Shown one piece after another: positions 9,690 to 59,176 of a DNA stretch of 64,000 nucleotides. The notes under the pieces are model-generated. The model saw nothing but the letters and a program-made list of their open reading frames with translations. It made no database searches and was not told the origin of the DNA. The stretch is from the IMG/VR virus record IMGVR_UViG_3300037067_011978. One strand, given 5' to 3'. This stretch comes from an uncultured virus (IMG/VR IMGVR_UViG_3300037067_011978) (Duplodnaviria; Heunggongvirae; Uroviricota; Caudoviricetes). A program made the translations under genes and the position numbers. Positions within the stretch are counted from its first letter, which is position 1. Every line of letters starts with the position of its first letter.

Positions 9690-9700
9690 ACCTTCGCTTA

Positions 9701-11712: not shown

Positions 11713-11713
11713 A

Positions 11714-12361: not shown

Positions 12362-12536
12362 TTATCTATAGTTAAAAACATATTATTGGGTAAAAGCTTC
12401 TTTACTTTTTCAAACAAATCAATATCGGCATTATTAACAATTGTTATTTCGTCATTCATCAATCTTATACAAATCTTTTTTTGTTCACTATCATAACTAA
12501 TAGTTAATATATTATTAAAATTAATATAAGTAGATT

Positions 12537-12779: not shown

Positions 12780-13054
12780 TTAACCTTCCTAACGTCATAG
12801 TCTAACCATGATTCTCTTTCCTCATTATAAATCTGTTCTGCTTCATCTTCATCTTCAATATTATCTTCTTCCATAATTTGCTCAATATCTCTTAATCCAT
12901 GTAATCCTGCATAAGAATCATATTCTTGACAAGCCATTTCATAGGCATAAGTATTAGCTTCGTCTTCATTTTTAGCATCGATGATTTCTTCATCTTTATA
13001 TTTAATTCCACCAAATCCACCACCTAACCCATACCTAATAGCAAATTTAATCAT

Positions 13055-13945: not shown

Positions 13946-14509
13946 TTATCTTTTTATTCCAAAATCACATTTTCTAATTTTGCACATTCTTCCTTGCCCA
14001 GTTTTATCGTGGAATACTATTCCTTCAATATCTAATTCAGGATCAGAAAAATATTTTCTTAATCCTTCAAATGATAAATCAGTAATATTTAATTTTTCTA
14101 TTCCATGTTTAATTAATTCATGCCCATTTATACACTCTGGATTGCCTTGTACTTTTTCTCCACATAATTCATAAGTATTATCTCCCCATTTTTCTTTTTT
14201 ATCAAAAGCTTGAAAAGCCCATCTATCTTGAGGATTATTTCTATCACATTTAATCCAGTGGGGCCAATGTCCAGTTATAGAATCAGGGTCATCGCAAGGT
14301 ATAGCACCTTCAGGAGGGACTTTCCCTTTTTTACAATCATAACGTCTATATAATTCACCATTAATTATTGCCATTGCAGTCCCGTCAAATTTTCTAGTCG
14401 GAATACCAAACTCAAAAACCCAACTATTTTCTTCATTTATTATATTAATAACCTTGCTTAAATCATTTGGATCTTTTTTATAAAGTGTAGACATCTTTTT
14501 CATTTGCAT
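13946..14509 (-). CDS. RNA-ligase-like nucleotidyltransferase (DUF5565-like)
   Basis: RKFDGT (KxDG), YELCG, EGIVF, terminal K.R..DFG. Confidence 0.7.
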   Translation of the reverse strand: MQMKKMSTLYKKDPNDLSKVINIINEENSWVFEFGIPTRKFDGTAMAIINGELYRRYDCKKGKVPPEGAIPCDDPDSITGHWPHWIKCDRNNPQDRWAFQAFDKKEKWGDNTYELCGEKVQGNPECINGHELIKHGIEKLNITDLSFEGLRKYFSDPELDIEGIVFHDKTGQGRMCKIRKCDFGIKR

Positions 14510-25868: not shown

Positions 25869-26400
25869 AAAATAAATGCGAATATCTTATTTGGGAAGAT
25901 AAGACAGATTATAAGTGTTTAATAGGAGAATCAATAATCCCATATAAGGGTATGATTGGAAGATTGCGAGAATGTGGAGAAGAAGGTAAAGAATATTCTG
26001 TTTATAAAAAGATGAAGAAAGGAAAACCAGAAGGAGCAAAACACAATGTTTGCCTTTGTGAAAAACATTATGAATTGGTTTTAGATAATACTGTAAAGAT
26101 TAAGGAGGAAATATGAAACTATTTGGGTATGAAATCACTATTAAGAAAATACAAAGTTATAAAACTCCTATTGAAAAAGCAAAGGAAGTTATAATAAAAT
26201 ATTACAATGAAAACAAAAATTACTTTAATTGTGGTTCAGATATAGAAATATCAAATAGAAAAATAGAATTAATTAAAATGGCAAGAAGTAATTTAGGAAT
26301 AGACAAAAACGGCATTTGTCTTTTAGGATTAAAAGAATTAAAAGAATTAGTTGAAAGCATGTTTGATTCTAAAATAAAATTTCTAGAATAGTAAATAATT

Positions 26401-26474
26401 GGACCGTTAGCTCAGTTGGCTAGAGCAACACACTTTTAATGTGTAGGTTATTGGTTCGATTCCAATACGGTTCA
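26401..26474 (+). tRNA. tRNA-Lys(UUU)
   Basis: Cloverleaf: GGACCGT/ACGGTTC acceptor, ACACA-CTTTTAA-TGTGT anticodon arm, GTTCGATTC T-loop; no encoded CCA. Confidence 0.93.
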
Positions 26475-26482
26475 AGTTTCTT

Positions 26483-26556
26483 GGCTCCGTAGTCCAACTG
26501 GCAGTGACAAGGGACTTAAAATCCCTCAAGTATGGGTTCGAATCCCATCGGAGCTA
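26483..26556 (+). tRNA. tRNA-Leu(UAA) with short variable loop
   Basis: GGCTCCG/CGGAGCT acceptor, AGGGA-CTTAAAA-TCCCT anticodon arm, GTTCGAATC T-loop, discriminator A. Confidence 0.88.
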
Positions 26557-27501
26557 GTAAGTTTTATTTAGGAGGAAATTATGGATTTTGATAACGAAGA
26601 TAATGAATTGGATAATCTTTTAATGAATATGAATATGGGATTGCTTCCTGAGAATCTTTGTCAATCTGAAATAGAATTATTAGAACAAAAATATGGCAAT
26701 AATTGGTTTGAAAAATTAGGCTATTCCGAACCTAAATACAAGAAGCCATTAAATGCCTAAGCAAAAAAGAAAATCTCCCGTATGGCGATGGGCATTAGAA
26801 AATGACAAGGTGATGCCAGTATTTTATTCCGAAAAGGAAGAGTATAAGGATATTAAGACCTGGAAAAATATCAATGACGTTCCAATTAGGAGGAAAAAAT
26901 GAATCCAGATACCAAGGACGTTTATGAAGAAAATAAAGAATTAAAGGAAATTGTAAGTGAACTACAAAGGGAATTATCAATAGCTAAAAATAAAATTGCT
27001 GATCTTACATACGCAATTATGGGGCATTCTTTAAGTTATTAGGAGGAACTATGAAGAACAGTAAGCAAGAACAAATGTTTTATAATGTAGCAAAACAATA
27101 TGTATTAAAACAGGATTATCTATCAGGCGAAAAGGATGAAGGTGAAATTGAATTATTGAATGAAGAAATCAGGATTCTTTCAGGGAAAATAAAACATTAT
27201 CTTTTCAAACTATGGAAAGAACAAAAGATCATTATTGTTTGGGATAAGGAGGAAGTGAAATGAATAGCAGATATTTTGATAATGATTTATTTGAGAATTT
27301 AGTCAATCAGGTTTGTCAAAAGGAAACTAGAATACTTGGCGGGATATTAATAGGCCCGTCAGATAATAATGATTATATAGAAATGTGGGAAAGGCTTTTA
27401 ACAGAAAAGAAAAAGGAAATAAAGGATATGGAAATTGCGATCAGCCTATTAAAATTGGCTAATGAGTTAAAAGTAAAATATGTAGATTCAGAAGAAGACA
27501 A

Positions 27502-28086
27502 ATGACTAAAAAATATGCCACTAAACAGTTTACCCAATTTCTTCCCATGATTGAAAAAGCATGTTGGCATTATTATAGAAAATATCATTTAGATAGGGCA
27601 GATATCGAAAGTCAAGCGTTTTTAATTTTCTGTAATGCTATAGAAAAATTAGATATAAAAAAAGCTTCATTCTCTACATATTTATTTAATGAATTAAAAA
27701 GATTAGATAGGTATTGTAAATATGAATTTCAGAAAGAAAATAAGGATGTTATTAGGATAAAAAAAATGCATAAAAATGGTTATGGTAAAAATGTTTTTGT
27801 AGATAGAATTGAAGTCCCTGATATTTTACAATATGATATTTTTGATAAAGTAATAACGAAAATGGATTATGAAATCAGTTTATCAAATGATGCTAAGGAA
27901 ATCGTCAAATATATACTTTCAAGGGAATGGGAAAGAATTGAAACAAATTGGAAACCTAGTTTTAGTTATATACAAAAAAAGTATTTAGAAAATGATTGGA
28001 CAAAAAATAGAATTGTTAAGGCTTGGCAAGAAATAAAGGAATGGTGGCAAGGTTCTAATAAAGATCAATTTTGTATGGAGGTATGA
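27502..28086 (+). CDS. RNA polymerase sigma-factor-like protein
   Basis: Region-2-like pattern PMIEKAC...DIESQAFLIFCNAIEKLD..KASFSTYL. Confidence 0.6.
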   Translation: MTKKYATKQFTQFLPMIEKACWHYYRKYHLDRADIESQAFLIFCNAIEKLDIKKASFSTYLFNELKRLDRYCKYEFQKENKDVIRIKKMHKNGYGKNVFVDRIEVPDILQYDIFDKVITKMDYEISLSNDAKEIVKYILSREWERIETNWKPSFSYIQKKYLENDWTKNRIVKAWQEIKEWWQGSNKDQFCMEV

Positions 28087-36446: not shown

Positions 36447-37877
36447 TTGACGCGAGAGAAAATAAAAATTGATAGTGAAGTTTCTATCCTCATAAATTGC
36501 ATAACCAATGATAGATTTTTGCAAGAAATGATTCCTATAATAAGGCCAAATTATTTTAAACTTGGTTATTCAAAAGTTATTTATAAATGGATAAAGGAAT
36601 ATTGGGAAGCATATTCTTGTGCTCCAAAAAAATATATTACAAATATTTATAAACAAAAATATGCTTTGTTAAAAGAAGATTCAGATGAAAATGATGAAAT
36701 TAAATTATTCTTAACTAACTTATCAAAAAAATATGAAGAATATTCTGATAATAATAACATTAAACCATTAATAGATGAAGCTGAAAATTATTTAGGTATT
36801 AGATCAGGTGAAGTATTAAAAGAACAAATTGAAGATGCATTGTTATCTAACGATAAGAAAAAACTTGAAACTGTTATAGCTAATTATAAAAGAGTAGAAA
36901 AACCAACTGGTGAAGGTATCGATCTTTTACATGACCATACAAAAATATTAGAAGCATTGACAAAAGAACATAATGAAATAATTGTTTTCCCTGGTGCAGT
37001 AGGAAAAATAATTCCACCTATTTGTCGTGGCGATTTTATGTCATTTTTTGGACCAGCTAAGCGTGGAAAAAGTTTTTGGCTTTGGTATACAGCCGAAGTA
37101 GCAATGGGACAAGGATGTAAAGTTATTTATATCCCATTAGAAATGAACGATACTGCAATAATAAAAAGGAGTTGGCCATCAATAACAGGTAAGCCATTAT
37201 TTAATAGGATAGTGCATTCAGCACATTTTGAAGAAGATGGAGAGAAGTTTTCAATAATTCAAGATGAAAAAGAAATGGAAGGTTTCAATTTAGAATCAAT
37301 TGAAGATATGCAGAAAAAATTAAGGAGACTTTATAGAAAAGGTAGAATAAAAATAATTCCTATGGTAGGGGCTACGTGCAAAAAGATTGAATCAATTTGT
37401 GATAATCTATATTATTATGAAAATTTTGTACCTGATGCAATAGTTATTGATTATGCTGATTATATGGAAACAGAAGGAAAATATACAGATAACAGAGATA
37501 AGATAAACAAGATATGGAAAGGAGTAAGAGATTTTGGAAATGAACGAAATATTGCAATGATAACCGCGAGCCATACGGAAAAGAAAACTTTCAACGAGGA
37601 TATAAAGACTTCGCAGGCATCAGAGGACATAAGAAAAATAAACCATGTAACATTGGCAGTGAGCTTGAATGCCACTGATAAAGAAAATGAAAATAATATA
37701 ATTAGGTTAGGAATGATGGAGATTAGGGAAGGCAGGCATATATCAGATCAAGCCGTAGTATTGCAATGCCTGGATTTAGGTAGGCCATGCATAGATAGTA
37801 AGATGAAGAAGGAAGTCAATGGGTATAATAATTCGGAAGAAAAAAAGCAGTATCGAAGAAAAAATGTTGAAAGATAA
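36447..37877 (+). CDS. dnaB: replicative DNA helicase, DnaB-like
   Basis: Walker A GPAKRGKS, LEM, IVIDYAD, TASH; 476 aa. Confidence 0.85.
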   Translation: MTREKIKIDSEVSILINCITNDRFLQEMIPIIRPNYFKLGYSKVIYKWIKEYWEAYSCAPKKYITNIYKQKYALLKEDSDENDEIKLFLTNLSKKYEEYSDNNNIKPLIDEAENYLGIRSGEVLKEQIEDALLSNDKKKLETVIANYKRVEKPTGEGIDLLHDHTKILEALTKEHNEIIVFPGAVGKIIPPICRGDFMSFFGPAKRGKSFWLWYTAEVAMGQGCKVIYIPLEMNDTAIIKRSWPSITGKPLFNRIVHSAHFEEDGEKFSIIQDEKEMEGFNLESIEDMQKKLRRLYRKGRIKIIPMVGATCKKIESICDNLYYYENFVPDAIVIDYADYMETEGKYTDNRDKINKIWKGVRDFGNERNIAMITASHTEKKTFNEDIKTSQASEDIRKINHVTLAVSLNATDKENENNIIRLGMMEIREGRHISDQAVVLQCLDLGRPCIDSKMKKEVNGYNNSEEKKQYRRKNVER

Positions 37878-37895: not shown

Positions 37896-39284
37896 ATGAA
37901 AATAAACAAACTTATTGAAAGAGAAGTGACTTTTGAATGTGTTCCAAGTGTCATTGGCTCTGGTTATGAAGTGCAAGTAGCGGATTTGGCTTTGCGTGAT
38001 GGTGTAGCATATCGAGCCGCTAGAAAAAATATGCAGATTCATTCCGCTATTATCCTAAAGATAGATGGAAAGTTTAGCGGATTTTTTACGTTCCAAATAA
38101 ACCATGAAGTTGGCGAATTTTGCCTATTACAATCAGCAATGGAATTAGACAGGAAAGACAAGGAAATATATAAGGATATGTTACGTGAGATAATCAAGCA
38201 AAATACATTTGGCTATCCAATGATTATGACGGTTAGCACAAAACATGATCTTGAAAGACCAGATGTATTAGAAGCCGTTGGATTCAAAACATATCTTAAT
38301 TTAAGTGGATTTGCCTATATGGTTTACGGAACTATGGAACAGGTCAGGATGAAGCGACTTGCACATGCTACCATGACAAATACTTGGACTTCTACCAAGG
38401 CTGATTGGTTGAAAATGAAACATGAATGGAACGATAAAATAGAGGCTATGGGCAAAAAGTATAATATCAAAAATCCTAAGTTTGCTTCGCGTGATGGTTG
38501 TTGGCAAGGTAAACAGGGAATGGCTAATATCGTAATGGCTTCACAGAAAATAGTAGATGGAAAGATAAAAAATAAAACTGATAAAACATTGAATGGGAAC
38601 GCATCGGTACTCGATCCTGTAGCTTGCGAAGTTATATTAAGATTTTTCATGCCTACAAATGGTAAGCGGGTTTATAATCCTTTTGGTGGTGGTGTTCAAT
38701 TTGGATTTGTTGCAGGATCATATGGGTATAAATATATATCAAGTGAAATTAGGCAAAATCAATGCGATGCTAACAATGCATTGTGCCAGGATTTCAAGAA
38801 TGTAAAATGGATAAAAAGTGATAGTTCAAAATACATTCCTAAAAATAAAGTTGATTTAGTTTTTTCATGTCCACCATATTACCAGGTGGAAGAGTATTTA
38901 GATTATGATGGAAAATCTCCAGAAGGCGAATTGAATAAAATACCTACTTATGAACAATTCAGGGATACACTTTTTGAAGGATATAAAAAAGCAATAAGTG
39001 TATTAAATAATAATTGTTTTGTAATAATAATGACTGGAGATTCAAGAAATAAAGATGGCGCTTATTATGGTTGTGAAGCCGAGCATGAATTATTTTTTAG
39101 AGAACAAGGATTGCACATCTATAACAAGATAATTTATTTGGAATGTGAGTTTACTAGATTGGCGCAAGCCAAGGTTACATTGAATTATAGAAAGTTCCCT
39201 AAGCGTGAACAGAAAATATTGGTTTTTTACAAAGGAGATATAAAGAAAATATCAGAATTATATCCTAAAATAGGCAGGCTATAG
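37896..39284 (+). CDS. DNA amino-methyltransferase with N-terminal GNAT-like domain
   Basis: VYNPFGGG (motif I) and FSCPPY (motif IV); first ~145 aa show a GNAT-like pattern (IILKIDGKFSGFFTF...CLLQSAM...LEAVGF). Confidence 0.75.
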   Translation: MKINKLIEREVTFECVPSVIGSGYEVQVADLALRDGVAYRAARKNMQIHSAIILKIDGKFSGFFTFQINHEVGEFCLLQSAMELDRKDKEIYKDMLREIIKQNTFGYPMIMTVSTKHDLERPDVLEAVGFKTYLNLSGFAYMVYGTMEQVRMKRLAHATMTNTWTSTKADWLKMKHEWNDKIEAMGKKYNIKNPKFASRDGCWQGKQGMANIVMASQKIVDGKIKNKTDKTLNGNASVLDPVACEVILRFFMPTNGKRVYNPFGGGVQFGFVAGSYGYKYISSEIRQNQCDANNALCQDFKNVKWIKSDSSKYIPKNKVDLVFSCPPYYQVEEYLDYDGKSPEGELNKIPTYEQFRDTLFEGYKKAISVLNNNCFVIIMTGDSRNKDGAYYGCEAEHELFFREQGLHIYNKIIYLECEFTRLAQAKVTLNYRKFPKREQKILVFYKGDIKKISELYPKIGRL

Positions 39285-40195
39285 TGGAACGATTCAAGGA
39301 TAAAATAACATTGATTGAAAATAATCGTGGTTGTTTTATCCTTGATACTATTAAAGGATGTAGTGGCTGCAATGAAAAAAGGCCACGGGGATGCTATGAT
39401 GATTGCTATGCAAAAAATATAACTTCAAGATATAAGCAGATAGATTTCACCATTCCTGTAAAAAGAATGTTCATTGAGAATAAATCAAAATATGCCTTAT
39501 TTGATTTCGATGATACTAGGCACATAAAAGAAATAATTGGCAAGATAGAAAAAATAAATATGCCATTTGTTAGAATTGGGGAAATGGGAGATCCTTCTGA
39601 AGATTGGGAACACACAATAAATATTTGTAAGCAAATTTCAATTACTAATAAATATATAGTAATTATAACTAAGCACTGGAAAATAATTAACAACAAATTA
39701 TTGGATAAATTAAAATCAAATTCAAATTCAAATATTTGTATTAATACTTCTATATCCGCACTTGATACAGAAAGGGAAATTGAATATCGATTAAAACAAT
39801 ATAATAGATTGAAGGAATTATGTAATTCAGTATTAAGGATTGTAACTTGTGACTTCAATATTAAAAATAAAGAAGGCAATGTTAGAAACAAAATACAAAA
39901 TGAGTTATTGTCAATTCCTAATCATATAGATACAATATTCAGGCCAAGTAATAATAATCCATTGGTCATTAATAAAATCATAAATGTTAATAATGTAAAA
40001 TTCTTGAAAAAGGAAGTGCTGGCGAGTATGCATGATAAAAATGCTTATCTAGGATTTTGTAATACTTGTCCTGATATGTGCGGGATTCCAATTGAATTGA
40101 AGGAAAGTTATTACAAGCAAACCGTGGAGAACCTGAAAATTGCTAATAAGAAAAAAGGTATGTCATTGATCGGGCAATCATTATTTATAGAATAA
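39284..40195 (+). CDS. radical-SAM-like Fe-S protein
   Basis: KGCSGC...GCYDDCYAK Cys cluster, VRIGEMGDPS, IITKHW, terminal CNTCPDMCG. Confidence 0.6.
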   Translation: MERFKDKITLIENNRGCFILDTIKGCSGCNEKRPRGCYDDCYAKNITSRYKQIDFTIPVKRMFIENKSKYALFDFDDTRHIKEIIGKIEKINMPFVRIGEMGDPSEDWEHTINICKQISITNKYIVIITKHWKIINNKLLDKLKSNSNSNICINTSISALDTEREIEYRLKQYNRLKELCNSVLRIVTCDFNIKNKEGNVRNKIQNELLSIPNHIDTIFRPSNNNPLVINKIINVNNVKFLKKEVLASMHDKNAYLGFCNTCPDMCGIPIELKESYYKQTVENLKIANKKKGMSLIGQSLFIE

Positions 40196-40207
40196 TATGC
40201 AAAAAAT

Positions 40208-40225
40208 TGAAAGATAGTGTATAAT
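40208..40225 (+). promoter_or_regulatory. AAAGAT-class promoter
   Basis: TGAAAGATAGTGTATAAT(ATAG). Confidence 0.7.
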
Positions 40226-40425
40226 ATAGATATGGAAACTTCATACAAGCAATTTTTCTTCGATCTTAGGGGCAAATTGTTGACTGGTCAAGTAACCTAT
40301 GATGAAGCAATAAAGATTGTACAGCCTGTATTAGATGAGATGAACAAGAAAGGCGAATTGATAGCTAAGAAGTATGATAGAAAATATAGAAAAGTAAGTT
40401 ATATTACTGTATTAAAAGGATAAAA

Positions 40426-41358
40426 ATGGACAAAGTATTAGTAACTGGTGGGGCTGGATTTATAGGCAGTCATTTATGTAAAAAACTAATTGACCAAGGG
40501 AATATTGTCTATTGTTTAGATAACCTATTTACAGGAAATAAAAAAAATATAAAAGAACTTCTTGACAACCCCAAATTTTCTTTTCTGGAATATAATATAA
40601 TCGTGCCATGTGATTTGGATGTCAATAAGGTATATAACCTGGCTTGTCCTGCTAGTCCTATTCATTATCAGTTATTCCCTGTAGAAACCTTAAAGACAAG
40701 TATTCTTGGATCTATAAATATGCTTGATTTGGCGAATAAGAATAAAGCCAGAATTCTACAAACATCGACTTCTGAAATATATGGTAACCCATTTGTTCAT
40801 CCTCAAAAAGAAGATTATTGGGGGAATGTAAATCCGATTGGTGTTCGTTCTTGCTATGATGAAGGAAAACGTTGTGCCGAGACATTATTTTTTGATTATA
40901 ATAGACAATATGGGACAGATATTAGAGTTGTAAGGATATTCAATACTTATGGTCCTAACATGAATATTAATGATGGCAGGGTTGTAAGTAATTTCATAAT
41001 TCAAGCCTTAACAAACGAGGATATAACGATTTATGGTAGTGGATTACAAACAAGGTCTTTTTGTTATATAGATGATATGATAGATGCTTTGCTATTGATG
41101 ATGGGTAATGATTTTATTGGCCCTATAAATCTCGGAAATGAGAATGAATTTACAATTATTGAATTGGCAGAGTTGGTGTTATCTATAACTAATAGTAAAT
41201 CTAAGATAACATTTAATGAACTTCCACAGGATGATCCTAAACAGCGAAAACCAGATATAAGTCTTGCTAAGAACAAGCTGGGATGGGGACCAAAAATTCA
41301 ATTGAAAGAAGGATTGATAAAAACCATAGAATATTTTGAGGAACAATTATGCAAATAG
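40426..41358 (+). CDS. uxs: UDP-glucuronate decarboxylase (UDP-xylose synthase)
   Basis: [68 protein letters not shown]. Confidence 0.93.
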
Positions 41359-42659
41359 CGGTTATAGGAACTGGATATGTTGGCTTGGTTACTGGAGCAT
41401 GTTTTGCTGAATTGGGAAATATTGTTACTTGTATTGATATAGATAAACAAAAAATAGATAATCTAAAAAATGGAATTATTCCAATTTATGAACCAGGATT
41501 ATCAGAACTTGTAAAAAGGAATATAGAAGAAAATAGATTGATATTTTCTACAGAATATTCAGATATAAATAATTCAGAAGTTATTTTTATAGCTGTAGGG
41601 ACTCCATCAAATGAAGATGGTTCGGCCGATCTTAAATATATTAAATCTGTAAGCAGGTCAATTGGTAAATATATAAATGGATACAAAATAATAGTAAATA
41701 AATCCACGGTTCCTGTTGGAACATATAAATTGGTAAAAAATATAATAAATGAAGAGATAGAAAATAGAAAGGCTTTTATTGTATTCGATATTGTATCAAA
41801 CCCAGAATTTTTAAGAGAAGGAACTGCAATAAATGATTTTATGAGACCAGATAGAATAGTTATTGGGTGTAGTAATAGTGTATCTGAAAATGCAATGAGA
41901 AAATTATATGAACCTTTTATAAAAAATCAACATCCATTTATTGTTATGGATAATATTTCTGCAGAGTTGACAAAATATGCTGCTAATACAATGTTAGCAA
42001 CTAGAATCAGTTTTATGAATGAATTAGCAAATCTATGTTCTAAAGTTGATGGTAATATTGATAATGTTCGTTTAGGTATTGGAAGTGATTCAAGGATAGG
42101 ATTGCCGTTTTTATATTCAGGTATCGGCTATGGTGGATCCTGTTTCCCAAAGGATGTCAAGGAACTTATTAATTTTGGGAATAAAAATGGAATCGATATG
42201 AGTATAGCCAAGGCAGTTGAGGATATAAACTATAACCAAAAAAGAATACTATTGAAAATGATAAAAGACAGATTTGGGAATGATTTAAGCAATAAGACCT
42301 TTGCTATTTGGGGGTTATCATTTAATCCACAAACAGATGACATACGGGAATCTCCATCATTAGTTATAATTCAAGGTTTACTTGATATTGGAGCTTCTAT
42401 ACAAGTATATGATCCAGAAGCCATGGAAAACACCAAACAAATATTTGGAAATTCTGTAAAATACATATATAATATGTATGATGTATGTAAAGATTGTAAT
42501 TGCTTGTTATTGCTTACAGCTTGGAAACAATTTAGGCAACCAGATTTTTCTCTTATTAAAAACAATTTAAAAGAACCAATTATTTTTGATGGCAGGAATC
42601 AATATAAATTAGAAGATATGAATGAACTTAGTTTTGAATATCATAGCATAGGACGATAA
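41349..42659 (+). CDS. ugd: UDP-glucose 6-dehydrogenase
   Basis: [48 protein letters not shown]. Confidence 0.95.
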
Positions 42660-42660
42660 T

Positions 42661-42933
42661 GTGAAAAAGAAATTTGTAAAGAAAAATGCTTTATTGGAAA
42701 TCGAAGATAATGAAGAGTGGAGAGAACATTGGAAGGGGATGCCAGAATTTTCCCATAAGGATATTACTCCATATTTTTCCATAAAGATACATTTCAATAC
42801 GAAAGAAAGCATAAAGCAATTTTCAGAATTGGTTGGGCAAAATATTACTGAAAATACCAACTCTATTTGGTATCCAAAACAGAAAATCACCCATGTTGCA
42901 AATAAAAGATATATAGATGAATCAGAAGTATAA
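42661..42933 (+). CDS. small protein coupled to the glycosyltransferase
   Basis: WKGMPEF...LVGQNIT..T.SIWYP; overlaps the glycosyltransferase start. Confidence 0.6.
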   Translation: MKKKFVKKNALLEIEDNEEWREHWKGMPEFSHKDITPYFSIKIHFNTKESIKQFSELVGQNITENTNSIWYPKQKITHVANKRYIDESEV

Positions 42934-43783
42934 ACCAAAGTATCCGATTTATATTATCTCTAAAGGAAGGGCTGATACTGGATTAACATATAAATTCTTG
43001 GAGGAAATGAACCAACCTTATCATATAGTCATAGAGAAACAGGAATATAAACAATATAGGAAATATATAGATAAAGAAAAAATATTAGTATTACCTTTTA
43101 GCAATTTAGGACAAGGTGGGATTCCAGCAAGAAATTGGGTATGGGAACATGCAATTGCTACTGGGTCTTTTCGTCATTGGATTATGGATGATAATATAGA
43201 TGGATTTTGGCGATCAAATCATAATAGAAGGGTAAGGGTAAGGACACCGGCATTATTCAGATGCCATGAGGATTTTATAGATAGATATGAAAATGTTGCT
43301 ATGTCTGGACTTAATTATTATATGTTTTGTCCGGATAAAGTTATAAAACCACCATACGAATTGAATACAAGGATTTATTCATGTATTCTTTTACGAAATG
43401 ATCTTCCTTATCGATGGAGAGGAAGATATAATGAAGACACTGATTTATCAATTAGAATATTAAAAGATGGTTGGTGTACTATATTATTCATGGCAATGCT
43501 AGCTAAGAAAATGCCTACCATGACTATGAAAGGTGGGAATACAGAAGATTTATATGAAATAGAAAATGGAAGATTATTAATGGCTCAGTCACTTGAAGAA
43601 CAGCATCCAGATATAGTTACTATTACTAGGAAATGGGATAGATGGCAACATCAAGTTGATTATTCTAAATTCAAAAATAATAAATTGATATTAAAGAAAG
43701 ATGTAAAAATTCCAGATGGCATAAATAACTATGGAATGAGATTAATCAAATGGGATAAGGAGAAAAATTGTGCTATTAGATGA
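42917..43783 (+). CDS. GREB1/TAGT-like GT-A glycosyltransferase (DNA-base glycosyltransferase family)
   Basis: YPIYIISKGR, ARNWVWEHA, HWIMDDNI, RIYSCIL, YNEDTDLS, KGGNT, WQHQVDY. Confidence 0.8.
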   Translation: MNQKYKPKYPIYIISKGRADTGLTYKFLEEMNQPYHIVIEKQEYKQYRKYIDKEKILVLPFSNLGQGGIPARNWVWEHAIATGSFRHWIMDDNIDGFWRSNHNRRVRVRTPALFRCHEDFIDRYENVAMSGLNYYMFCPDKVIKPPYELNTRIYSCILLRNDLPYRWRGRYNEDTDLSIRILKDGWCTILFMAMLAKKMPTMTMKGGNTEDLYEIENGRLLMAQSLEEQHPDIVTITRKWDRWQHQVDYSKFKNNKLILKKDVKIPDGINNYGMRLIKWDKEKNCAIR

Positions 43784-44585
43784 AGATAGAAATAAATCAT
43801 TTGAAAATTTTTTAATTAGGTGTAGTAAATATCGCAATATAAATGTGGATTTAATTAGAAATATTTTTAATACTACAATAAAATATTTGTTTGCTAATAA
43901 AGAAAAAAGACAAGAATTAAAACTAAACCAAAATCTTGAAAATAGATGGTATAAAGAATTAGATACTGGTAATATAGATTATTCTGTTTATGATACAGAT
44001 GAATATATAGCGGAGCTTTGGGCTTGTTGGATAGTATATTCAAAAAAATATTTACTTTCGATTCAAAAGGAATCATCATTCCCACCGTATGGGATAGTTA
44101 ATAATTTTGGAAAAGTTAAAAAAATAGTTGATTTGGGATGTGGTTTTGGCTATACTACGTTAGCATTAAAACAAATATTCCCTAATGCGGAAGTTTATGG
44201 AACTAACATAGAAAATACAATACAAATTAAATTTGCTAAACAACTTGGTAAAGAAAATAATTTTAATATAGTTAGTAATATTAAAGAGATAAAAGGTAAA
44301 ACCGATCTAGTATTTGCTAGTGAATATTTTGAACATATTTTAGAACCAATTAAGGATTTACATAAAATAGTCAAATATTTAGAACCAAGAAATTTTCTTA
44401 TTGCTAATGCTTTTGGAACAAGAGCTATAGGACATTTTATAAATTATTTATATAATGAGAATGAAATAGACGGGGAATTAATTTCTAGATTATTTAATAA
44501 GGAACTAAAAGAATTTGGATATGAAAAAGTAAAAACAAAACTATGGAATAATAGACCAGCATACTATAAACTAAAGGAGAAATAA
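43770..44585 (+). CDS. class I SAM-dependent methyltransferase
   Basis: IVDLGCGFG; DLVFASEYFEHI..P. Confidence 0.85.
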   Translation: MLLDEDRNKSFENFLIRCSKYRNINVDLIRNIFNTTIKYLFANKEKRQELKLNQNLENRWYKELDTGNIDYSVYDTDEYIAELWACWIVYSKKYLLSIQKESSFPPYGIVNNFGKVKKIVDLGCGFGYTTLALKQIFPNAEVYGTNIENTIQIKFAKQLGKENNFNIVSNIKEIKGKTDLVFASEYFEHILEPIKDLHKIVKYLEPRNFLIANAFGTRAIGHFINYLYNENEIDGELISRLFNKELKEFGYEKVKTKLWNNRPAYYKLKEK

Positions 44586-45664
44586 TGCAACTAAACAAAA
44601 ACGAATTCTTATCCGCAATGAAAAAGGCAATGCCTGGCGTCGAAAGTTCCAATACCATCCTGCAAGGTGCGGATACTTATATTTTTCATAACGGGTATAT
44701 CTATACCTATAATGACGCCATCAGCGTATCTGTACATTTTCCAATCACCAATAAAGCTGGCGAGAATATTTCAGCAGCCATCAAGGCAAAGGATTTTTAT
44801 GATCTGATTTCCCGCTATGAAGGCGATTCACTTACCATCATTCCTAAAAATGATATGTGGATCATCAAGTCAGAAAACGCTAGGGCAGAAATTACGTTAC
44901 TAGAAAATAATCTCATCGAGCGAATCGAAGGCATAAAGATCGATCCTAAGCAATTCAAGAAAATTCCTGATAGGTTCATGGAAGGAATGGCAATATGCAA
45001 TTTTTCTTCTAAGTCACAATTATCAGGATTATTCTGCTCAGATCAGGTTATGGTATCTGCTGATGAGCTGAAGATTAATTGGTATGGATTGAATGATGCT
45101 TTTACTACTAGTTTCTGGATTACCAATGATGCCGTTAATAACCTATTGAAGTTAAATGAAATTACCAAATACCATGTATCTGATTCATGGGTTCATTTTA
45201 TGACTAAGGATAAAACCATTTTTTCCTGCAAGCGATTAGTCCAGGATAAGTACCCGTTTGATAAAATAAATGAGTTGGTTGATAGTCATAAAAAGGTAAA
45301 AGAAGATATTTCAAATGAATTGCCAAATAAGCTGATTGACGCGGTGAATAGGGCGGCGGCGCTAAGCACCAATATTGAAAGTTTCGATACAGTGAAATTG
45401 ACATTCACCCCAGAGATGATAGAAGTATTTGCGCAAAGGCCAAGTGGCAAGTATACAGAAAATGTTCCATGGGAAAAGCCATTTAAGAAGGAATTTGATC
45501 CAATCAGCATTTTCGTTGATTACCAAATGATAGAGAATGGGATAAAATATAGTAAGAGCTTTTATTTACATAATACTTTGGTAAATGAAAAAAATAGGAC
45601 CAGAGTTATTTTCGTATCAGAGTTTGGAATCCAGCTTATTTCTACTTTTGATGGAGGAGAATAA
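44585..45664 (+). CDS. DNA polymerase III beta-clamp-like protein
   Basis: 359 aa; N-terminal LNKNEFLSAMKKA...ILQG; KYP..; LIDAVNRAA; lies just before dnaE. Confidence 0.7.
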   Translation: MQLNKNEFLSAMKKAMPGVESSNTILQGADTYIFHNGYIYTYNDAISVSVHFPITNKAGENISAAIKAKDFYDLISRYEGDSLTIIPKNDMWIIKSENARAEITLLENNLIERIEGIKIDPKQFKKIPDRFMEGMAICNFSSKSQLSGLFCSDQVMVSADELKINWYGLNDAFTTSFWITNDAVNNLLKLNEITKYHVSDSWVHFMTKDKTIFSCKRLVQDKYPFDKINELVDSHKKVKEDISNELPNKLIDAVNRAAALSTNIESFDTVKLTFTPEMIEVFAQRPSGKYTENVPWEKPFKKEFDPISIFVDYQMIENGIKYSKSFYLHNTLVNEKNRTRVIFVSEFGIQLISTFDGGE

Positions 45665-45882: not shown

Positions 45883-48609
45883 ATGAATAATTTTATCCAT
45901 CTACATTGCCACAATGAATATTCTCTCCTTGATGGATTCGGAACATCTAGTAATTACGCAAAAAAGATTATAGAAAATAATCAATTAGGCATGGCACTGA
46001 CAAATCACGCTAATGTAGATGGCAATATAAAATTTCAAAATGAGTTTATCAAAAATAATTTAATCCCTATTCATGGCGTAGAATTTTATATAGTTAATAA
46101 TATTTCAGAGCATCCAAAAGGTGAGAAGCGAAGTCATTTACTGGCATTAGTAAAAAATGAAATTGGCTGGACAAATATTTTACAAATGCTTACTATTGCT
46201 AATTTAGACGGGCAATATTATCGCCCTCGCATTTCTCCAGAAATATTATTAGAGCATTGCGAAGGGCTAATTATTTCAACTGCTTGTTCTTCATCATTTA
46301 TAAAAGAAAAATGGGGAAGGAAACTATTAAAGGATTTATACAATAAAATTGGGAATGATTTATATACAGAAGTAATGCCTTTCAATATGCAAGATCAAAT
46401 AGAAGTAAATGAATTATCAATTAAATATGCAAATGCTTTAGGATTAAAAACAATAGCCACTAACGATTGCCACTATATCAATAAAGACGACGCGCAAGCC
46501 CAAGAAGTATTATTAGCTATTCAAACAAAAAAACGATGGAATGATTCTGACAGATGGAAGTTTCAAGTTGACGGATTATATGCAAAAAATTATGATGAAA
46601 TGTTTTTAGCATTTAAGAAGCAAAAGCAATTTAATAATAAGCAAATAGAAGAGTATTTGGATAATACTTTAGAAGTATTTGAGAAGTGCAAGGATTTTCG
46701 TATTCCAGAAAGAAAAGTTGCTTTGCCAAAAACACCAGAACTAAAAGAATATAATGGTACGGCAGAAGAATTATTATGGGAAAAATGTTTAGTAGGATTT
46801 GAAAAAATAACGGAAAATAAATCAGTATATAAAAAACGCCTTAACGATGAAATGAAGTTAATAGTTAGTCAAGGATTTTGTGAATATTTTCTAATTGTTG
46901 AAGAAGTGATTAGATGGTGCAAAGAAAATAATATAATGACAGGGCCAGGGCGAGGAAGCGCGGGTGGTTCATTAGTTTGCTATTTATTAGATATTACTAA
47001 AATTGATCCAATTAGATTTGATTTATTATTCTCGCGCTTTATTTCTCCTGATCGTATAGACCTTCCTGATATTGATAATGACTTCCAAGATAATAAGAGG
47101 CAATTGGTTATAGAACATTTCAAGGAAATATATGGCGAAAATCACGTTGCTTGCGTTTCTACTTTTATGTCGATGAAAGGCAAAGGCGCTTTACGAGATG
47201 TTTCAAGGGTATTTGATATTCCATTAAATGAGGTAAATGAAGCATCTAAAAATATAGATGAAGGTGAGGATGAAGATTCAGAAAGTGAAAGTATTATTGG
47301 TCAATTAAACAATACTTCTGATGGGAAATTATTCATAAAAAAATATCCTACTGTCTATAAAATGGCATCTAAACTTGAAAATCAGATTCGCGGGAAAGGA
47401 ATGCACGCCGCCGCAGTAGTAATTTCAAAAGACAATCTAAGGAATGGTGACAAGGTATATTTACAGAAAACTCCGAATAAGAATAAAAATGATATAGTAG
47501 TAAATTGGGATAAATATGATATTGAATATGAAGGTTTGATGAAGTTAGATATTCTAGGGATAAACGCGCTAACAGTATTGAATGAAGCTAGGGAACTGAT
47601 AAAAATAAATACTGGGGAAGATATTGTATATGAGGATATTGATTTGAACGATCCTAAAATATTCAAAGAATTTTCAAAAGGTAATAATGATGGAGTTTTT
47701 CAATTTGGTACTTATGGACTAAAAAAACTTTGTAAGGAAATGGGAATAGAAACATTTATGCATTTATCAGATGCCAATGCATTGTGTAGACCTGGAACCG
47801 CCCATTCAGGATTAACCGATTTATATATTCAAAGAAAGCATGGACAAAAAATACCTAAGCAAGATTCGATAATTGAAAAAATAACTAAGAATACATTTGG
47901 AATTATTTTATATCAAGAGCAACTAATGCAGATAGTAAACGAAGTGGCAGGGCTTGATTGGAAAATAGCAGATAAAGTTAGAAAGGTTGTAGCAAAAAGT
48001 AAAGGAAGTGAAGAGTTTCTAAAATTCAAAAAGACATTTGCAAGCGGTTGCGTAAAGAATAATACATTAAGTAAAATAGAAGCCGAAAAATTATGGGATG
48101 AATTGGCGGCATTTGGTTCATACTCGTTCAATAAATCACATTCTGTTGCTTATTCTGTAATTTCGTACTGGGATATGTTCATTAAATTATATTACCCTAC
48201 AGAGTTTATTTGCGCTTCATTAACTTGTGGAAGTAAAACTGGCAAGCAAAGTTTAATTGAAGATGCTTTGAAAAAAGATATTGATATTAGACCGCCTAAA
48301 ATTGGAAAATCAGATAGCCACAAATGGATAGTAAAAAATGATGTTATGTATTGTCCATTTATTGAGGTAAAAGGATTTGGCGATGGATCGGCTAAGGAGG
48401 CAATGAATAAGAAAAATAAAGTTTCTACTAATCAAGGATTTTTTGATTTAGGAGAAAATATTGGCAATGGCAAGAAAACAAAAGTTGAACAAATATTATC
48501 AGATATAGATGCATATAAAGATGTTACGATTACTTCAAGCCAAGATAACAAGATAAAAGATTATTTTGATTTTAGATTCAAATTAGTGGAAAGGAGTAGA
48601 TATGATTGA
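45883..48609 (+). CDS. dnaE: DNA polymerase III alpha subunit (C-terminally short)
   Basis: PHP HLHCHNEYSLLDG, GPGRGSAGGSLV, PDIDND, HAAAVV, KLDILG, YSFNKSHSVAY. Confidence 0.95.
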   Translation: MNNFIHLHCHNEYSLLDGFGTSSNYAKKIIENNQLGMALTNHANVDGNIKFQNEFIKNNLIPIHGVEFYIVNNISEHPKGEKRSHLLALVKNEIGWTNILQMLTIANLDGQYYRPRISPEILLEHCEGLIISTACSSSFIKEKWGRKLLKDLYNKIGNDLYTEVMPFNMQDQIEVNELSIKYANALGLKTIATNDCHYINKDDAQAQEVLLAIQTKKRWNDSDRWKFQVDGLYAKNYDEMFLAFKKQKQFNNKQIEEYLDNTLEVFEKCKDFRIPERKVALPKTPELKEYNGTAEELLWEKCLVGFEKITENKSVYKKRLNDEMKLIVSQGFCEYFLIVEEVIRWCKENNIMTGPGRGSAGGSLVCYLLDITKIDPIRFDLLFSRFISPDRIDLPDIDNDFQDNKRQLVIEHFKEIYGENHVACVSTFMSMKGKGALRDVSRVFDIPLNEVNEASKNIDEGEDEDSESESIIGQLNNTSDGKLFIKKYPTVYKMASKLENQIRGKGMHAAAVVISKDNLRNGDKVYLQKTPNKNKNDIVVNWDKYDIEYEGLMKLDILGINALTVLNEARELIKINTGEDIVYEDIDLNDPKIFKEFSKGNNDGVFQFGTYGLKKLCKEMGIETFMHLSDANALCRPGTAHSGLTDLYIQRKHGQKIPKQDSIIEKITKNTFGIILYQEQLMQIVNEVAGLDWKIADKVRKVVAKSKGSEEFLKFKKTFASGCVKNNTLSKIEAEKLWDELAAFGSYSFNKSHSVAYSVISYWDMFIKLYYPTEFICASLTCGSKTGKQSLIEDALKKDIDIRPPKIGKSDSHKWIVKNDVMYCPFIEVKGFGDGSAKEAMNKKNKVSTNQGFFDLGENIGNGKKTKVEQILSDIDAYKDVTITSSQDNKIKDYFDFRFKLVERSRYD

Positions 48610-53100: not shown

Positions 53101-54252
53101 ATGAAAAAGAGTAATTCGCTAAAGGATCGGCTAAAGAAGTCGTATGAGTCAAAGGATCGCGGGGCAGGCACTAGGCCATCTGCAATGAATTGGAAGCTTG
53201 TGGAGGATATTAAGTTTTATAAGCCCAAGGAAGGCAAGAATAAGATTGATATTATCCCCTATGTAATCAAAACGAAAAATGATCCTCTTGTTAAGACTGG
53301 CGATGCAAAAGTTGGCGATCAGTCTTATATGCTTGATCTTTGGATTCATTCAAACATCGGCCCAACGCAAGCCCAAATTATTTGCAATAAAGAAAATTTC
53401 AATAAGCCTTGCCCGATTTGCGAACAGCGTCAACAATTTTATAATGAAGGTAAAAAGAATGAAGCTGGTGCATTAAAAGCAAAGCGTCAATGTTTTTACA
53501 ATGTTAGGGAATATGAAAAAGTTGTAAAGGATAAAAAGGAAACTTGGGCTCCTTCTGATGAAATTACAATTTTTAATATTTCTCATTTCTTATTTGAAAA
53601 GGAATTGATAGAGGAAGCCAAGGCGAGCTCTGATGATGGCGGAATAATTGATTTCGTCGATATTGATGAAGGAAAATCAATTATTTTTAGGGCGGCAAAA
53701 ACTGAATCCGTTATTAATGAAAAATCAGTTAATTTCCTAGAATATAAATCTTTTAGTTTTGTCGATAGAAAAAATGCTATTGATGAATCATGGTTAGAGA
53801 AAGCAGTTAGTTTTGATGAATTAATGATTTTAAATACTTATGATGAAGCTAAGAAAATATTATTTGGTGATGAAGATGATGATTCTGATAATGATGATGA
53901 AGAAGATGATGAAGATGAAAAGCCGGTAAAAAGTAAAACTAAAAAACCAATGATTGAAGATTCTGATAATGATGATGAAGATTCTGATGATGATACCAAT
54001 GATAACGAGGATGAAGATTCTGATGATGAAGAGGATGAAGATTCTGATGATGAAGAGGATGATGATGAACCAACACCAAAGGCTAAGGCAAAGCCAATAG
54101 CTAAGAAAGTTACAATTGGCAAACCTGTTACTGTTTTAAAATGTCCTCACAAGCATAAATTTGGAATTGATTGTGAAAAGAAAGAGGAATGTGATGATTG
54201 TGATGATTGGGCTGATTGCAAGAAGGAAAACAGAAAACTAAAGGCAAAGTAA
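53101..54252 (+). CDS. single-stranded DNA-binding protein (gp32-like)
   Basis: FYKPKEGKNKIDIIPY, H..., C...CPIC, FYNV, long acidic tract, Cys-rich C-terminus. Confidence 0.75.
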   Translation: MKKSNSLKDRLKKSYESKDRGAGTRPSAMNWKLVEDIKFYKPKEGKNKIDIIPYVIKTKNDPLVKTGDAKVGDQSYMLDLWIHSNIGPTQAQIICNKENFNKPCPICEQRQQFYNEGKKNEAGALKAKRQCFYNVREYEKVVKDKKETWAPSDEITIFNISHFLFEKELIEEAKASSDDGGIIDFVDIDEGKSIIFRAAKTESVINEKSVNFLEYKSFSFVDRKNAIDESWLEKAVSFDELMILNTYDEAKKILFGDEDDDSDNDDEEDDEDEKPVKSKTKKPMIEDSDNDDEDSDDDTNDNEDEDSDDEEDEDSDDEEDDDEPTPKAKAKPIAKKVTIGKPVTVLKCPHKHKFGIDCEKKEECDDCDDWADCKKENRKLKAK

Positions 54253-57772: not shown

Positions 57773-59176
57773 ATGAAATTCAAGTTTAGTAGTTTAGGTC
57801 CTCTAGATGAGGCTGAAGTAGATTTAGCAAAGCTGACAATAATTTGTGGAAAGAATAATACAGGTAAAACTTATGTTTCATATACAATTTATGGCTTTTT
57901 CGCTAATTGGTATCGAATTGCAAATATAAAGGTTAACACAGCCGACTTTCGTCGACTTCTAGAACAAGGAAGTATTGGAATTGATTTAGAAGATAAAGTT
58001 GCCAATAAATGGATGGATTCAAAAGAAAAATTCGAGATGCGTTGGCAAGAATCTCTTCCAGATATTCTTGCCGCCCCTCCAGCGCGTTTTACTAATACAA
58101 AACTAACATTTGATTTTAGTCTTGACTCGGCCTGGATTGAACGTCCATATACAAAAGAATTTATGAGTGAAAGTGGTAAAGTAATACTATCAGCAAATAA
58201 ACCAGCCAATTGCAAAACAATGGAGCTCGTAGCAATAAAGGATGAAACCGACGATCGTAGTCCTAGATTTATTTTAGAAAGCATGGTTTCTCAAACCCTA
58301 ATGGAGGCAGTTTTTTCACCTTACATTCCGAATGTATTTATGGTTAGCTCTGAAAGAACGGGGGCGGTTACATTTAAAGAAGAATTGAATCTTACAAAAA
58401 ATAGACTAGTTAGTTTTTTATCTAAAACCGATGTGGGGAAAGAATCATTCAATATGGAAGGTCTCTTTAATGCAGTATATAAACATGGATATCCTATTCC
58501 CGTAGAGCATAATGTAATCTATGTTAATCGTTTTGCATCTCTTGAAAGTCGAAGTGGTTCGTTAATAATTGAAAGACCAGATATTCTTGAATACTTTGAA
58601 TCGATTACCGGAGGTCGATATGAGACAAATAAAGATGGAGTAACACATTTCGTACCAATTGGTACAAAAGTCAAGCTTCAGTTAAGTGAAGCATCAAGCT
58701 CTGCTCGTAGCTTAGTCCTATTATGGTATTGGTTAAATTTCGAGGCAACAAATGATTCTATACTAATTATTGATGAGCCTGAAATGAACCTTCACCCCGA
58801 GAATCAAAGAGCTTTTGCACGATTTATTGCTCTATTAACTAATGCTGGTGTTTCAGTATTCATTACGACACATAGTGATACTATTGTAAGGGAAATTAAT
58901 ACCCTCCTTATGTTATCAAGAAATTCAAGTCATTTCAGGGAAATAATGGATAAATATAATTATAAGAAAGAAGAGCTTCTATCCTTATCAGATGTAAGGT
59001 TATATGTCGCGAATGGCAAGCAACGCACTTTATTAAATCGGGTAAAAAAAGGTTCAAAGGCTTGCTTGATAGAAATTAAGCCGACAGAGTCCATGGGACT
59101 TACTGCAGATATTTTCGATGAAACAATCGAAACTATGTCATCAATCCAAGATGCCATTCGATACGGAGCCGAATAG
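57773..59176 (+). CDS. ABC/AAA ATPase of the defence-associated AAA_15/AAA_21 type
   Basis: LTIICGKNNTGKT, LSEASSS signature, IIDEPEMNLHP, ITTHS. Confidence 0.88.
   Translation: MKFKFSSLGPLDEAEVDLAKLTIICGKNNTGKTYVSYTIYGFFANWYRIANIKVNTADFRRLLEQGSIGIDLEDKVANKWMDSKEKFEMRWQESLPDILAAPPARFTNTKLTFDFSLDSAWIERPYTKEFMSESGKVILSANKPANCKTMELVAIKDETDDRSPRFILESMVSQTLMEAVFSPYIPNVFMVSSERTGAVTFKEELNLTKNRLVSFLSKTDVGKESFNMEGLFNAVYKHGYPIPVEHNVIYVNRFASLESRSGSLIIERPDILEYFESITGGRYETNKDGVTHFVPIGTKVKLQLSEASSSARSLVLLWYWLNFEATNDSILIIDEPEMNLHPENQRAFARFIALLTNAGVSVFITTHSDTIVREINTLLMLSRNSSHFREIMDKYNYKKEELLSLSDVRLYVANGKQRTLLNRVKKGSKACLIEIKPTESMGLTADIFDETIETMSSIQDAIRYGAE

Follow-up and report, generated by a model that had tools for sequence, protein, structure and literature searches.

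To our knowledge, all described phage DNA glycosylations begin from a base that has been hydroxylated or hydroxymethylated by a thymidylate-synthase-type enzyme or a TET-type dioxygenase. The TAGT family, as presented in PMC13390438 and bioRxiv 2023.12.21.572611, includes the T2/T6 glucosyl-hydroxymethylcytosine (HMC) glucosyltransferase and phage glycosyltransferases that act on 5-hydroxymethylcytosine (5hmC). A pentose-modified cytosine, involving arabinosylation of 5-hydroxycytosine, is reported for RB69, phage NP and Shewanella phage Thanatos (PMC13390438, PMC12838424). ParB-like proteins are described as activators of phage thymine dioxygenases on double-stranded DNA (PMC13229309), and gp53 of Pseudomonas phage M6 is described as a radical S-adenosylmethionine (SAM) glycinyl-thymine isomerase (PMC8989533). 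Here we analyse a 64,000-nucleotide stretch of DNA from an uncultured tailed phage (IMG/VR record IMGVR_UViG_3300037067_011978; the whole stretch is hereafter called the window). At positions 37896-44585 it carries a block of eight genes that encodes a TAGT-family glycosyltransferase with a small partner, a putative sugar-nucleotide supply and a putative pair of base-modifying enzymes.

Open reading frame (ORF) calling shows that the eight genes, g1 to g8, all lie on the + strand and fill the interval from a DnaB-like helicase to a sliding clamp and DnaE, with gaps of at most 21 nucleotides (nt) or overlaps of 1-17 nt. The left flank is the gene for the replicative helicase (36447-37877, + strand), which was identified by Pfam and PHROG matches. 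On the right are a DnaN-like clamp gene (44585-45664, +), whose match to TIGR00663 is weak (E 6e-4) and whose position before DnaE fits, and a gene for a DnaE-type DNA polymerase III alpha subunit (45883-48609, +; Pfam and PHROG matches). The tight packing and the replication-module setting proposed in an initial annotation of the window are borne out by these coordinates, and its gene identities, including the GNAT and radical-SAM-like folds, hold up under profile searches and structure models.

The block divides into cassette A (37896-40195), made up of g1 and g2, and cassette B (40426-44585), made up of g4 to g8. Between them lies g3 (40217-40423, +), a small ORF of at most 68 amino acids (aa) that matches phrog_10302 (E 4e-5) and whose real start is possibly the ATG at 40232. 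It is not conserved with either cassette and was found at 1 non-self g1 locus only, on the opposite strand. The window has a G+C content of ~30%, and a megablast search with the 6.7-kb region against 50,697 phage records gave no match. The reading we prefer, at a probability of about one half, is that cassette B adds a pentose to phage DNA after replication, with cassette A introducing a separate modification at an exocyclic amine.

The TAGT enzyme, its partner and its predicted sugar supply

The g7 gene (42917-43783, +) encodes a TAGT-family glycosyltransferase of the GT-A type. Its match to the TAGT profile PF20691 is strong (E 7e-51; 173.5 bits against a cut-off of 27.5) and aligns residues 9-207 with profile positions 1-205, and the protein belongs to phrog_842. 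The GT-A residues R18, D91-D92-N93 and E173-D174-x-D176 are invariant in 34 sequences, with N as the third residue of the DDD triplet, and a C-terminal NNYGM tail (residues 265-281) is also conserved. A tblastn search with g7 at E<=1e-5 reached no T-even phage.

Directly upstream is g6 (42661-42933, +), which codes for a 90-aa protein that we propose to be a docking partner of the TAGT enzyme. It belongs to no named family, has the core motif W..MPEF ... F ... W.P, and falls into unnamed viral clusters only in a protein atlas. To place the pair in a wider context, we surveyed 79 non-self viral loci carrying g7 relatives of 53-68% identity, out of 268 matching stretches. Family clustering places a g6-family ORF beside TAGT in 74 of 80 sources, without a single case on the opposite strand, and tblastn recovers g6 in 67 of the 79 non-self loci. 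No family besides g6 is present in more than 19 of the 80 sources. The two proteins are also naturally fused, both in environmental loci (L053, 348 aa; L031, 518 aa) and within one coding sequence of Aeromonas phage phiAS5 (ORF0218) and of Tenacibaculum phage PTm1 (gp209).

A modelled complex of g6 and g7 scored 0.86, compared with 0.01 for the best of 3 controls. This mark is reached by 116 of 157 solved complexes and by 2 of 215 mismatched pairs, counts that hold roughly (own alignments were used). The model runs agree in at least 88% of contacts, the partner has a predicted local distance difference test score (pLDDT) of at least 77, and the conserved g6 residues W24 and M27-P28-E29 are set against the NNYGM tail of g7. 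A sequence comparison of g7 with solved structures found no relative, only Beclin at E 0.17, and it is therefore unlikely that the model drew on the memory of a solved complex. Adjacency, natural fusions and the modelled complex support the view that g6 and g7 together make up a single enzyme.

The g6 domain also occurs in longer proteins. Of 88 such proteins, 13 carry TAGT, 13 carry ParB_N and 1 carries both; no Pfam domain is recorded for 63. Matches to ParB_N beside TAGT were seen directly in 6 of 37 records. Moreover, the g6-TAGT pair lies among replication and recombination genes in unrelated phages. From family membership, this gene context and the fusions of the g6 domain to ParB-type domains, we infer that DNA is the glycosylation target.

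A clamp-docking tail was considered for g6 and rejected for the window copy, whose N-terminal tail has neither LF nor QxxLF. Across the family, 25 of 52 g6 N-terminal tails contain LF (background ORFs, 384 of 2504), and 4 of 52 contain the strict form QxxLF (background, 14 of 2504). Another family, of ~312-347 aa and with no Pfam match, is located directly downstream of TAGT in 16 of the 80 TAGT loci, which belong to T4-like marine phages (L076 6255-7298 and relatives); this family is a candidate further component.

The two genes upstream of g6 point to a dedicated sugar donor. The g4 protein (40426-41358, +) matches human UXS1 chains over its full length (residues 3-308; E 1e-110, 373 bits), the next-best short-chain dehydrogenase/reductase (SDR) family reaches 140 bits only, and NCBIfam equivalogs of related sugar enzymes score g4 below their cut-offs. 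The g5 protein (41349-42659, +) has a three-domain architecture in which PF03721, PF00984 and PF03720 all exceed their cut-offs. It matches TIGR03026 at 454 bits (cut-off 189.8), and its score of 519 against the TuaD equivalog falls short of the required 700. Homology shows g4 to be a predicted uridine diphosphate (UDP)-glucuronate decarboxylase, also termed UDP-xylose synthase (UXS), and g5 to be a predicted UDP-glucose 6-dehydrogenase (Ugd). At the level of homology, this upholds the proposal that the two enzymes provide the TAGT enzyme with its own sugar-nucleotide supply. Because g4 and g5 together would convert UDP-glucose to UDP-xylose, the likely donor is UDP-xylose, the alternative being UDP-glucuronate. 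By tblastn, TAGT is accompanied by an SDR gene in 18 of the 79 loci and by Ugd in 15. Literature searches found no paper on a UDP-xylose synthase paired with a TAGT enzyme.

The last gene of the block, g8 (43770-44585, +), codes for a class I SAM-dependent methyltransferase that matches Methyltransf_31 (38.4 bits, cut-off 27). The nearest NCBIfam models, which are sub-threshold, are carboxyl- and O-methyltransferases. By tblastn, g8 accompanies TAGT in 7 of the 79 non-self loci.

The putative amino-methyltransferase and radical-SAM-like pair

The g1 gene (37896-39284, +) codes for a 462-aa protein that combines a GNAT fold with a putative N6/N4-type amino-methyltransferase domain. In an AlphaFold2 (AF2) model with a pLDDT of 79.5, residues 10-146 adopt the GNAT fold (Z 14-15.2, root-mean-square deviation (rmsd) 2.3-2.6 over 128-136 residues), and the closest structures are Naa30, RimI, Ard1 and Naa50. 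The protein atlas gives a weak language-model lead (0.81) from this N-terminal domain to Acetyltransf_1. Residues 150-450 of the model resemble Trm11/TrmN-type amino-methyltransferases (Z 16.3-17.7), and the methyltransferase domain extends over about residues 150-460, with NPFGGG as motif I and FSCPPY as an invariant segment. At motif IV the residues are invariably CPPY, of which the first is unusual compared with (D/N/S)PPY.

The C-terminal half of the window copy scores 20.9 bits against N6_N4_Mtase (PF01555), below the cut-off of 26.7. Across the family, 21 of 22 members match this model at E<=0.1, the best at 2e-14. Full-length relatives of g1 with 62-81% identity are found in 44 viral contigs, and the methyltransferase half is common to phage ParB-methyltransferase proteins, some of which are annotated as DNA adenine methyltransferases.

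The g2 gene (39284-40195, +) encodes a 303-aa, radical-SAM-like putative Fe-S protein. The best fold match of its AF2 model (pLDDT 87.8) is spore photoproduct lyase (Z 11.5, rmsd 4.0 over 218 aligned residues), followed by dozens of further radical SAM enzymes at Z 6-9.7. Enzymes of the radical SAM type account for all 19 chains with Z of at least 8 and for nearly every one of the top 45 rows. Foldseek assigns probabilities of 0.97-0.99 with weak E-values (2e-3 or worse). As modelled, g2 has the partial TIM-barrel fold of radical SAM enzymes. Two cysteine triads are invariant in 22 sequences, namely C26, C37 and C41 (CX10CX3C) and, near the C-terminus, C259, C262 and C266 (CX2CX3C).

The g2 family comprises at least 1868 related clusters in metagenomic proteins, and the best 120 of these carry no Pfam domain and no functional name. 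A tblastn search with g2 against the 50,697 phage records found no match at E<=0.01. When the g2 profile was compared by sequence with solved structures, only matches to pentatricopeptide repeat (PPR) proteins were returned, and these are spurious. M6 gp53 was ruled out as a relative of g2, since there is no sequence match and the cysteine motif differs; the fold alone is alike.

Relatives of both proteins carry a clamp-binding-like peptide, Qxx[LMIF][FL]. It is present in 12 of 18 g1 N-termini and 10 of 22 g2 C-termini, against 56 and 24, respectively, of 735 background ORFs, and fused g2-g1 forms have it in the linker. The tail of the window g2 ends in ...GQSLFIE. The distribution of these peptides among cassette A relatives fits action at the replication fork. 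In addition, the likeness of the g2 fold to a DNA-repair enzyme and the half that g1 shares with phage ParB-methyltransferases suggest a link between cassette A and DNA.

A separate survey covered 49 non-self g1/g2 loci, 44 of them with full-length g1. The g2 gene adjoins g1 in 33 of these 44, and the two are fused as one ORF (742-768 aa, in the order g2-g1) in loci L127, L129, L130 and L131. TAGT, Ugd and g8 are each found in 0 of the 49 g1 loci, and the only two g4 matches in g1/g2 loci are both pieces of the window's own genome. Among the 79 TAGT loci, tblastn finds g2 in none and a g1-like gene in 1. Because g1 and g2 travel without TAGT, and TAGT and g6 travel without g1 and g2, the two pairs are independent, separately mobile cassettes that are neighbours here. 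The same counts do not support the proposal of the initial annotation that the eight genes act as one multi-step system, and in the loci surveyed cassettes A and B co-occur nowhere but here.

Two phage promoters had also been proposed at the head of the block. A scan of the window for sigma-70 promoters and terminators gave counts at chance level, and the number of sigma-70-like sites (68, versus 69 +/- 7.3 in shuffles) lends the proposal no support. A 13-mer from the site before g1 has 22 matches with at most 2 mismatches versus 5.7 +/- 2.6 expected, where the pattern was derived from the pre-g1 site itself and its 3' half coincides with the ribosome-binding site. The 13-mer TGTATAATATAGA has 4 exact + strand copies, at 34339, 40218, 49920 and 51018, every one of which is at or just upstream of an ORF start. 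Related sites are located at 37878 (before g1), 40408 (before g4) and 44491 (before the clamp gene). The element may represent an extended -10 promoter of the phage, and it may mark separate transcription units for the two cassettes.

The acceptor and the rival explanations

The search for an acceptor-making enzyme could be extended beyond the window. IMG/VR record G001 (63,498 bases) is 100% identical to window positions 1-14057 and 40846-64000 and holds 26,286 further bases between these two parts. A second IMG/VR contig (26,743 bases) includes a stretch identical to window ~30.9-41.4 kb, from the primase gene into g4. These overlaps imply that the phage genome is a circle, or is circularly permuted, with a length of ~90,286 bases. 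The phage is split in IMG/VR into the 63,498- and 26,743-base contigs (loci L002-L005). The additional 26 kb make up the structural module of a siphovirus, with genes for terminase, an SPP1-type portal, capsid and tape measure.

In the reading we prefer, g5 would oxidise host UDP-glucose to UDP-glucuronate and g4 would decarboxylate UDP-glucuronate to UDP-xylose. The g7 enzyme, held by g6, would transfer the sugar, most likely xylose and possibly glucuronate, onto phage DNA after replication, and g8 may then methylate the sugar or a carboxyl group. For cassette A the pairing of g1 and g2 is observed, and the chemistry and target we propose are that the two proteins would jointly install a second, unrelated modification on an exocyclic amine of a base in DNA, with the replication fork as the probable site. 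Both cassettes would shield phage DNA from host nucleases.

A number of findings speak against this proposal. Pfam scans of 72 window ORFs and 33 rest-of-genome ORFs found no TET/JBP, no other 2-oxoglutarate (2OG) dioxygenase, no thymidylate synthase homologue and no ThyX. This whole-genome negative holds at Pfam sensitivity and, with its 105 ORFs, extends to the ~90-kb genome what had been noted for the window, namely that no TET/JBP or hydroxymethylase is visible. Among 37 whole records with a g7-type TAGT, Tet_JBP occurs in none. The thymidylate synthase family occurs in 2 of the 37 (phiAS5 and PTm1) and in 0 of the 10 that are at least 90% complete. An all-versus-all BLASTP comparison of 11 complete genomes (34-93 kb, 30-69% G+C) found TAGT/g6 to be the sole family in all of them and no shared hidden enzyme at a threshold of 1e-4, which is too strict to pick up very distant homologues. 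The second most widespread family occurs in 5 genomes, and some of its members are antisense ORFs. Since the canonical bases of DNA lack a hydroxyl group, DNA glycosylation at this locus needs chemistry not yet described.

For cassette A, 0 of 22 g1 family members match a Pfam GNAT model (E<=0.1). In GNAT enzymes, the pyrophosphate of acetyl-CoA is bound by a loop of the form Q/R-x-x-G-x-G/A, and no such loop was seen by eye after strand 4 of the g1 domain. The g2 protein has no Pfam, PHROG or NCBIfam match, PF04055 included, and the canonical CX3CX2C radical SAM motif was not found in its 22 sequences. Finally, the window's own g1 and g6 lack Qxx[LMIF][FL], and the tail of its g2 (QSLF) is one residue short of it.

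The absence of known acceptor enzymes recurs in smaller genome sets. TET/JBP and thymidylate-synthase-type hydroxymethylases were found neither in G001 nor in any of the 10 other complete genomes with a g7-type TAGT, and a Pfam scan of 108 ORFs from the complete small genomes G003, G021 and G029 detected TAGT and gave no match to a dioxygenase, to thymidylate synthase or to ThyX. The TET search had a built-in control that gave no signal, and gp26 of Nonlabens phage P12024L, which is annotated as TET and lies directly before a TAGT, served instead and was recovered at E 2.8e-29. This TET-linked TAGT is 25% identical to g7, and tblastn over the 14.7-kb stretch around it gave no g6 match, which places this enzyme in a different subfamily.

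Aeromonas phages Aeh1 and 65 stand outside the list of gene 42 carriers given in PMC2993671, where they are also described as lacking gene 56. Aeh1 and the related phiAS5 carry a fused g6-TAGT, and in phage 65 only the TAGT part was matched. The gap in acceptor routes has already been remarked upon in the literature, and about 16,000 orphan glycosyltransferase (GT) contigs are reported in one preprint. Judged from our scans, the acceptor is not hydroxymethylcytosine or hydroxymethyluracil from any known route.

These negatives count in favour of the strongest rival explanation, that the TAGT/g6 enzyme glycosylates something other than DNA. The target could be a phage or host protein (for example of the replisome or of a defence system), RNA or an envelope polymer, with the UDP-xylose genes feeding the enzyme, and only cassette A, if either, would touch DNA. 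Such a target would account for the lack of an acceptor-making enzyme in the window's genome and in the 10 other complete genomes, and for the fact that the 11 complete genomes have no family in common but TAGT/g6. One of the carriers, G003, is a temperate phage of 36 kb with an integrase and no polymerase. The literature offers precedents, since GREB1, which has the domain of the TAGT family, is reported to O-GlcNAcylate a protein (PMC7968844), and TarP, a teichoic-acid glycosyltransferase, is given as the top solved structural homologue of the phage GT-A enzymes in bioRxiv 2023.12.21.572611, a source that regards orphan GT contigs as doubtful. The window's phage also has a second sugar cluster, at 898-5041.

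However, DNA is the substrate of the characterised phage members of the TAGT family, 13 of the 88 longer g6 relatives combine the g6 domain with ParB_N, and the pair is consistently found amid replication and recombination genes of unrelated phages. Inspection of g7 by eye noted no signal peptide or membrane segment. On balance we consider a non-DNA target unlikely, though deserving of serious attention.

If DNA is the target, one proposal dispenses with an acceptor enzyme altogether. The partner-dependent TAGT would need no hydroxymethylated base and would attach a pentose directly to a canonical constituent of DNA, for example to an exocyclic amine, to a ring oxygen or to the backbone, and cassette A would write a second, undescribed base modification. 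We regard this combination as tentative and rather doubtful.

Alternatively, all eight genes could belong to a single pathway. Cassette A would supply the acceptor, for example a methylated exocyclic amine functionalised by the radical enzyme, TAGT would xylosylate it and g8 would cap the product. The nearly gapless run of eight genes on one strand from DnaB to the clamp agrees with this arrangement, and no other acceptor route is visible in the genome. In the complete 39.8-kb record G029 (L164 7226-9719), moreover, a 460-aa N6_N4 DNA methyltransferase is located directly upstream of g6 and TAGT. This is the sole other hint that links an amino-methyltransferase to a g6-type TAGT. However, the cassettes co-occur only in the window (g2 in 0/79 and g1-like genes in 1/79 TAGT loci, TAGT in 0/49 g1 loci), and the recurrent 13-mer copies before g1, g3 and g4 hint weakly at separate transcription units. 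Because TAGT/g6 alone is common to the 11 complete genomes, cassette A is not needed by TAGT/g6. A single pathway is improbable in our view.

The most improbable of these explanations is a hidden first enzyme, in which an unannotated ORF (candidates are 9701-10963, 21423-22706, 53101-54252 and 16989-18029) would encode a 5-methylpyrimidine dioxygenase or hydroxymethylase too divergent for Pfam to detect and TAGT would glycosylate 5-hydroxymethyluracil (5hmU) or 5hmC: several genomic ORFs of 300-430 aa match no family, two deaminase-like genes are present, and 5-17% of contigs retrieved by phage 5mYOX profiles are reported to lack a PF12851 annotation (PMC13229309), yet no BLAST-detectable family besides TAGT/g6 unites the 11 complete genomes, nothing dioxygenase-like is found among the 108 ORFs of the three small ones, and the TAGT that is linked to TET in P12024L is the 25%-identical form with no g6 nearby by tblastn.

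Neighbouring genes, significance and comparison with known systems

Several other genes of the window stand out. The second sugar cluster, on the - strand at 898-5041, includes genes for a 476-aa MptE-like (Maf-type) protein (898-2328, -), a TadA-like deaminase that is extended at its C-terminus (2723-3436, -), a PseF/KdsB-like cytidylyltransferase (3828-4583, -) and a BT0820-type HAD phosphatase (4715-5041, -). The cluster may supply a sugar for another glycosylation, in this case an acidic one activated with cytidine monophosphate (CMP). Two genes that resemble ABC-transporter permeases (BPD_transp_1; 6087-6899 and 7715-8536, both -) are unusual phage cargo. Between them, within 6087-8536, lies a 196-aa member of phrog_799, which bears the label DNA methyltransferase and has no Pfam match.

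Genes for tRNA-Lys(ttt) and tRNA-Leu(taa) are located at 26400-26557, and a small protein with sigma-70 region 2 is encoded at 27502-28086. The phage may redirect transcription by means of its own sigma factor. A 467-aa AAA_15/AAA_21 ATPase of an OLD/AbiEii-like family (57773-59176) and a second, SMC-like ATPase that adjoins an RNA ligase gene (14500-15591, -) are possible defence or counter-defence genes.

Either of two outcomes would be informative. The locus would reveal new acceptor chemistry, or a widespread branch of 'DNA' glycosyltransferases would prove to act on something else, and in both cases the annotation of thousands of metagenomic phage glycosyltransferase genes would change. 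Attachment of a pentose to a canonical constituent of DNA, if true, would add a new type of DNA glycosylation, one shared by thousands of environmental phages, and g2 would be only the third type of radical SAM enzyme tied to DNA. New DNA modifications can also lead to tools, such as restriction-resistant DNA, sequencing chemistry and phage engineering.

Among known systems, those closest to g7 are the T2/T6 beta-glucosyl-HMC-alpha-glucosyltransferase and the phage GT-A glycosyltransferases of 5hmC, which have PF20691 and phrog_842 in common with it. The R, DD(N) and EDxD residues of g7 are comparable with the R...DDD...EDY/F pattern given for the phage GT-A enzymes in bioRxiv 2023.12.21.572611. 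Like g7, the TAGT enzymes of T2/T6 and of TET/5mYOX operons are encoded beside replication genes. In contrast to the T2/T6 and TET systems, the window's genome has no gene 42-type hydroxymethylase, no alpha-glucosyltransferase and no TET, and its glycosyltransferase would draw on its own UDP-xylose supply rather than on host UDP-glucose. The g7 enzyme also differs from the TET-linked TAGT of P12024L in having a 90-aa partner, none being detected there by tblastn.

The arrangement of g6 and g7 recalls the ParB-dependent system 5mYOX176/ParB176 described in PMC13229309, where a DNA-modifying enzyme likewise has an accessory protein encoded beside it, a role for which g6 is a candidate here. However, the enzyme in the present locus is a glycosyltransferase and not a dioxygenase, and the window g6 has no ParB domain.

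The described systems of RB69, NP and Thanatos resemble cassette B in having phage-encoded sugar-nucleotide enzymes and in placing a pentose on DNA, as we propose here. In the accounts given in PMC13390438 and PMC12838424, their acceptor is made by a thymidylate-synthase-family enzyme and other transferases are used. The window's phage has no thymidylate synthase homologue, and its donor would be made by Ugd and UXS.

For cassette A, the closest known parallel is M6 gp53. Both it and g2 are best matched structurally by spore photoproduct lyase, and each has two putative Fe-S sites, as far as gp53 is described in PMC8989533. The cysteine spacing is CX10CX3C in g2 and, according to the same source, CX3CX2C in gp53 and spore photoproduct lyase. 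Unlike the M6 genome, that of the window has no source of 5hmU. The partners differ as well, since gp53 is described with a kinase, an amino-acid transferase and a pyridoxal phosphate (PLP) enzyme, whereas g2 is paired with a GNAT fold and an amino-methyltransferase. For g1, the nearest described proteins are phage fusions of ParB with an N6/N4 methyltransferase (phrog_498; for example Enterococcus phage phiFL3A gp36), which are ~30-33% identical to the methyltransferase half of g1 and have the invariant FSCPPY and FGGG motifs in common with it. In g1, however, a GNAT-fold domain takes the place of ParB, and the protein is coupled or fused to g2.

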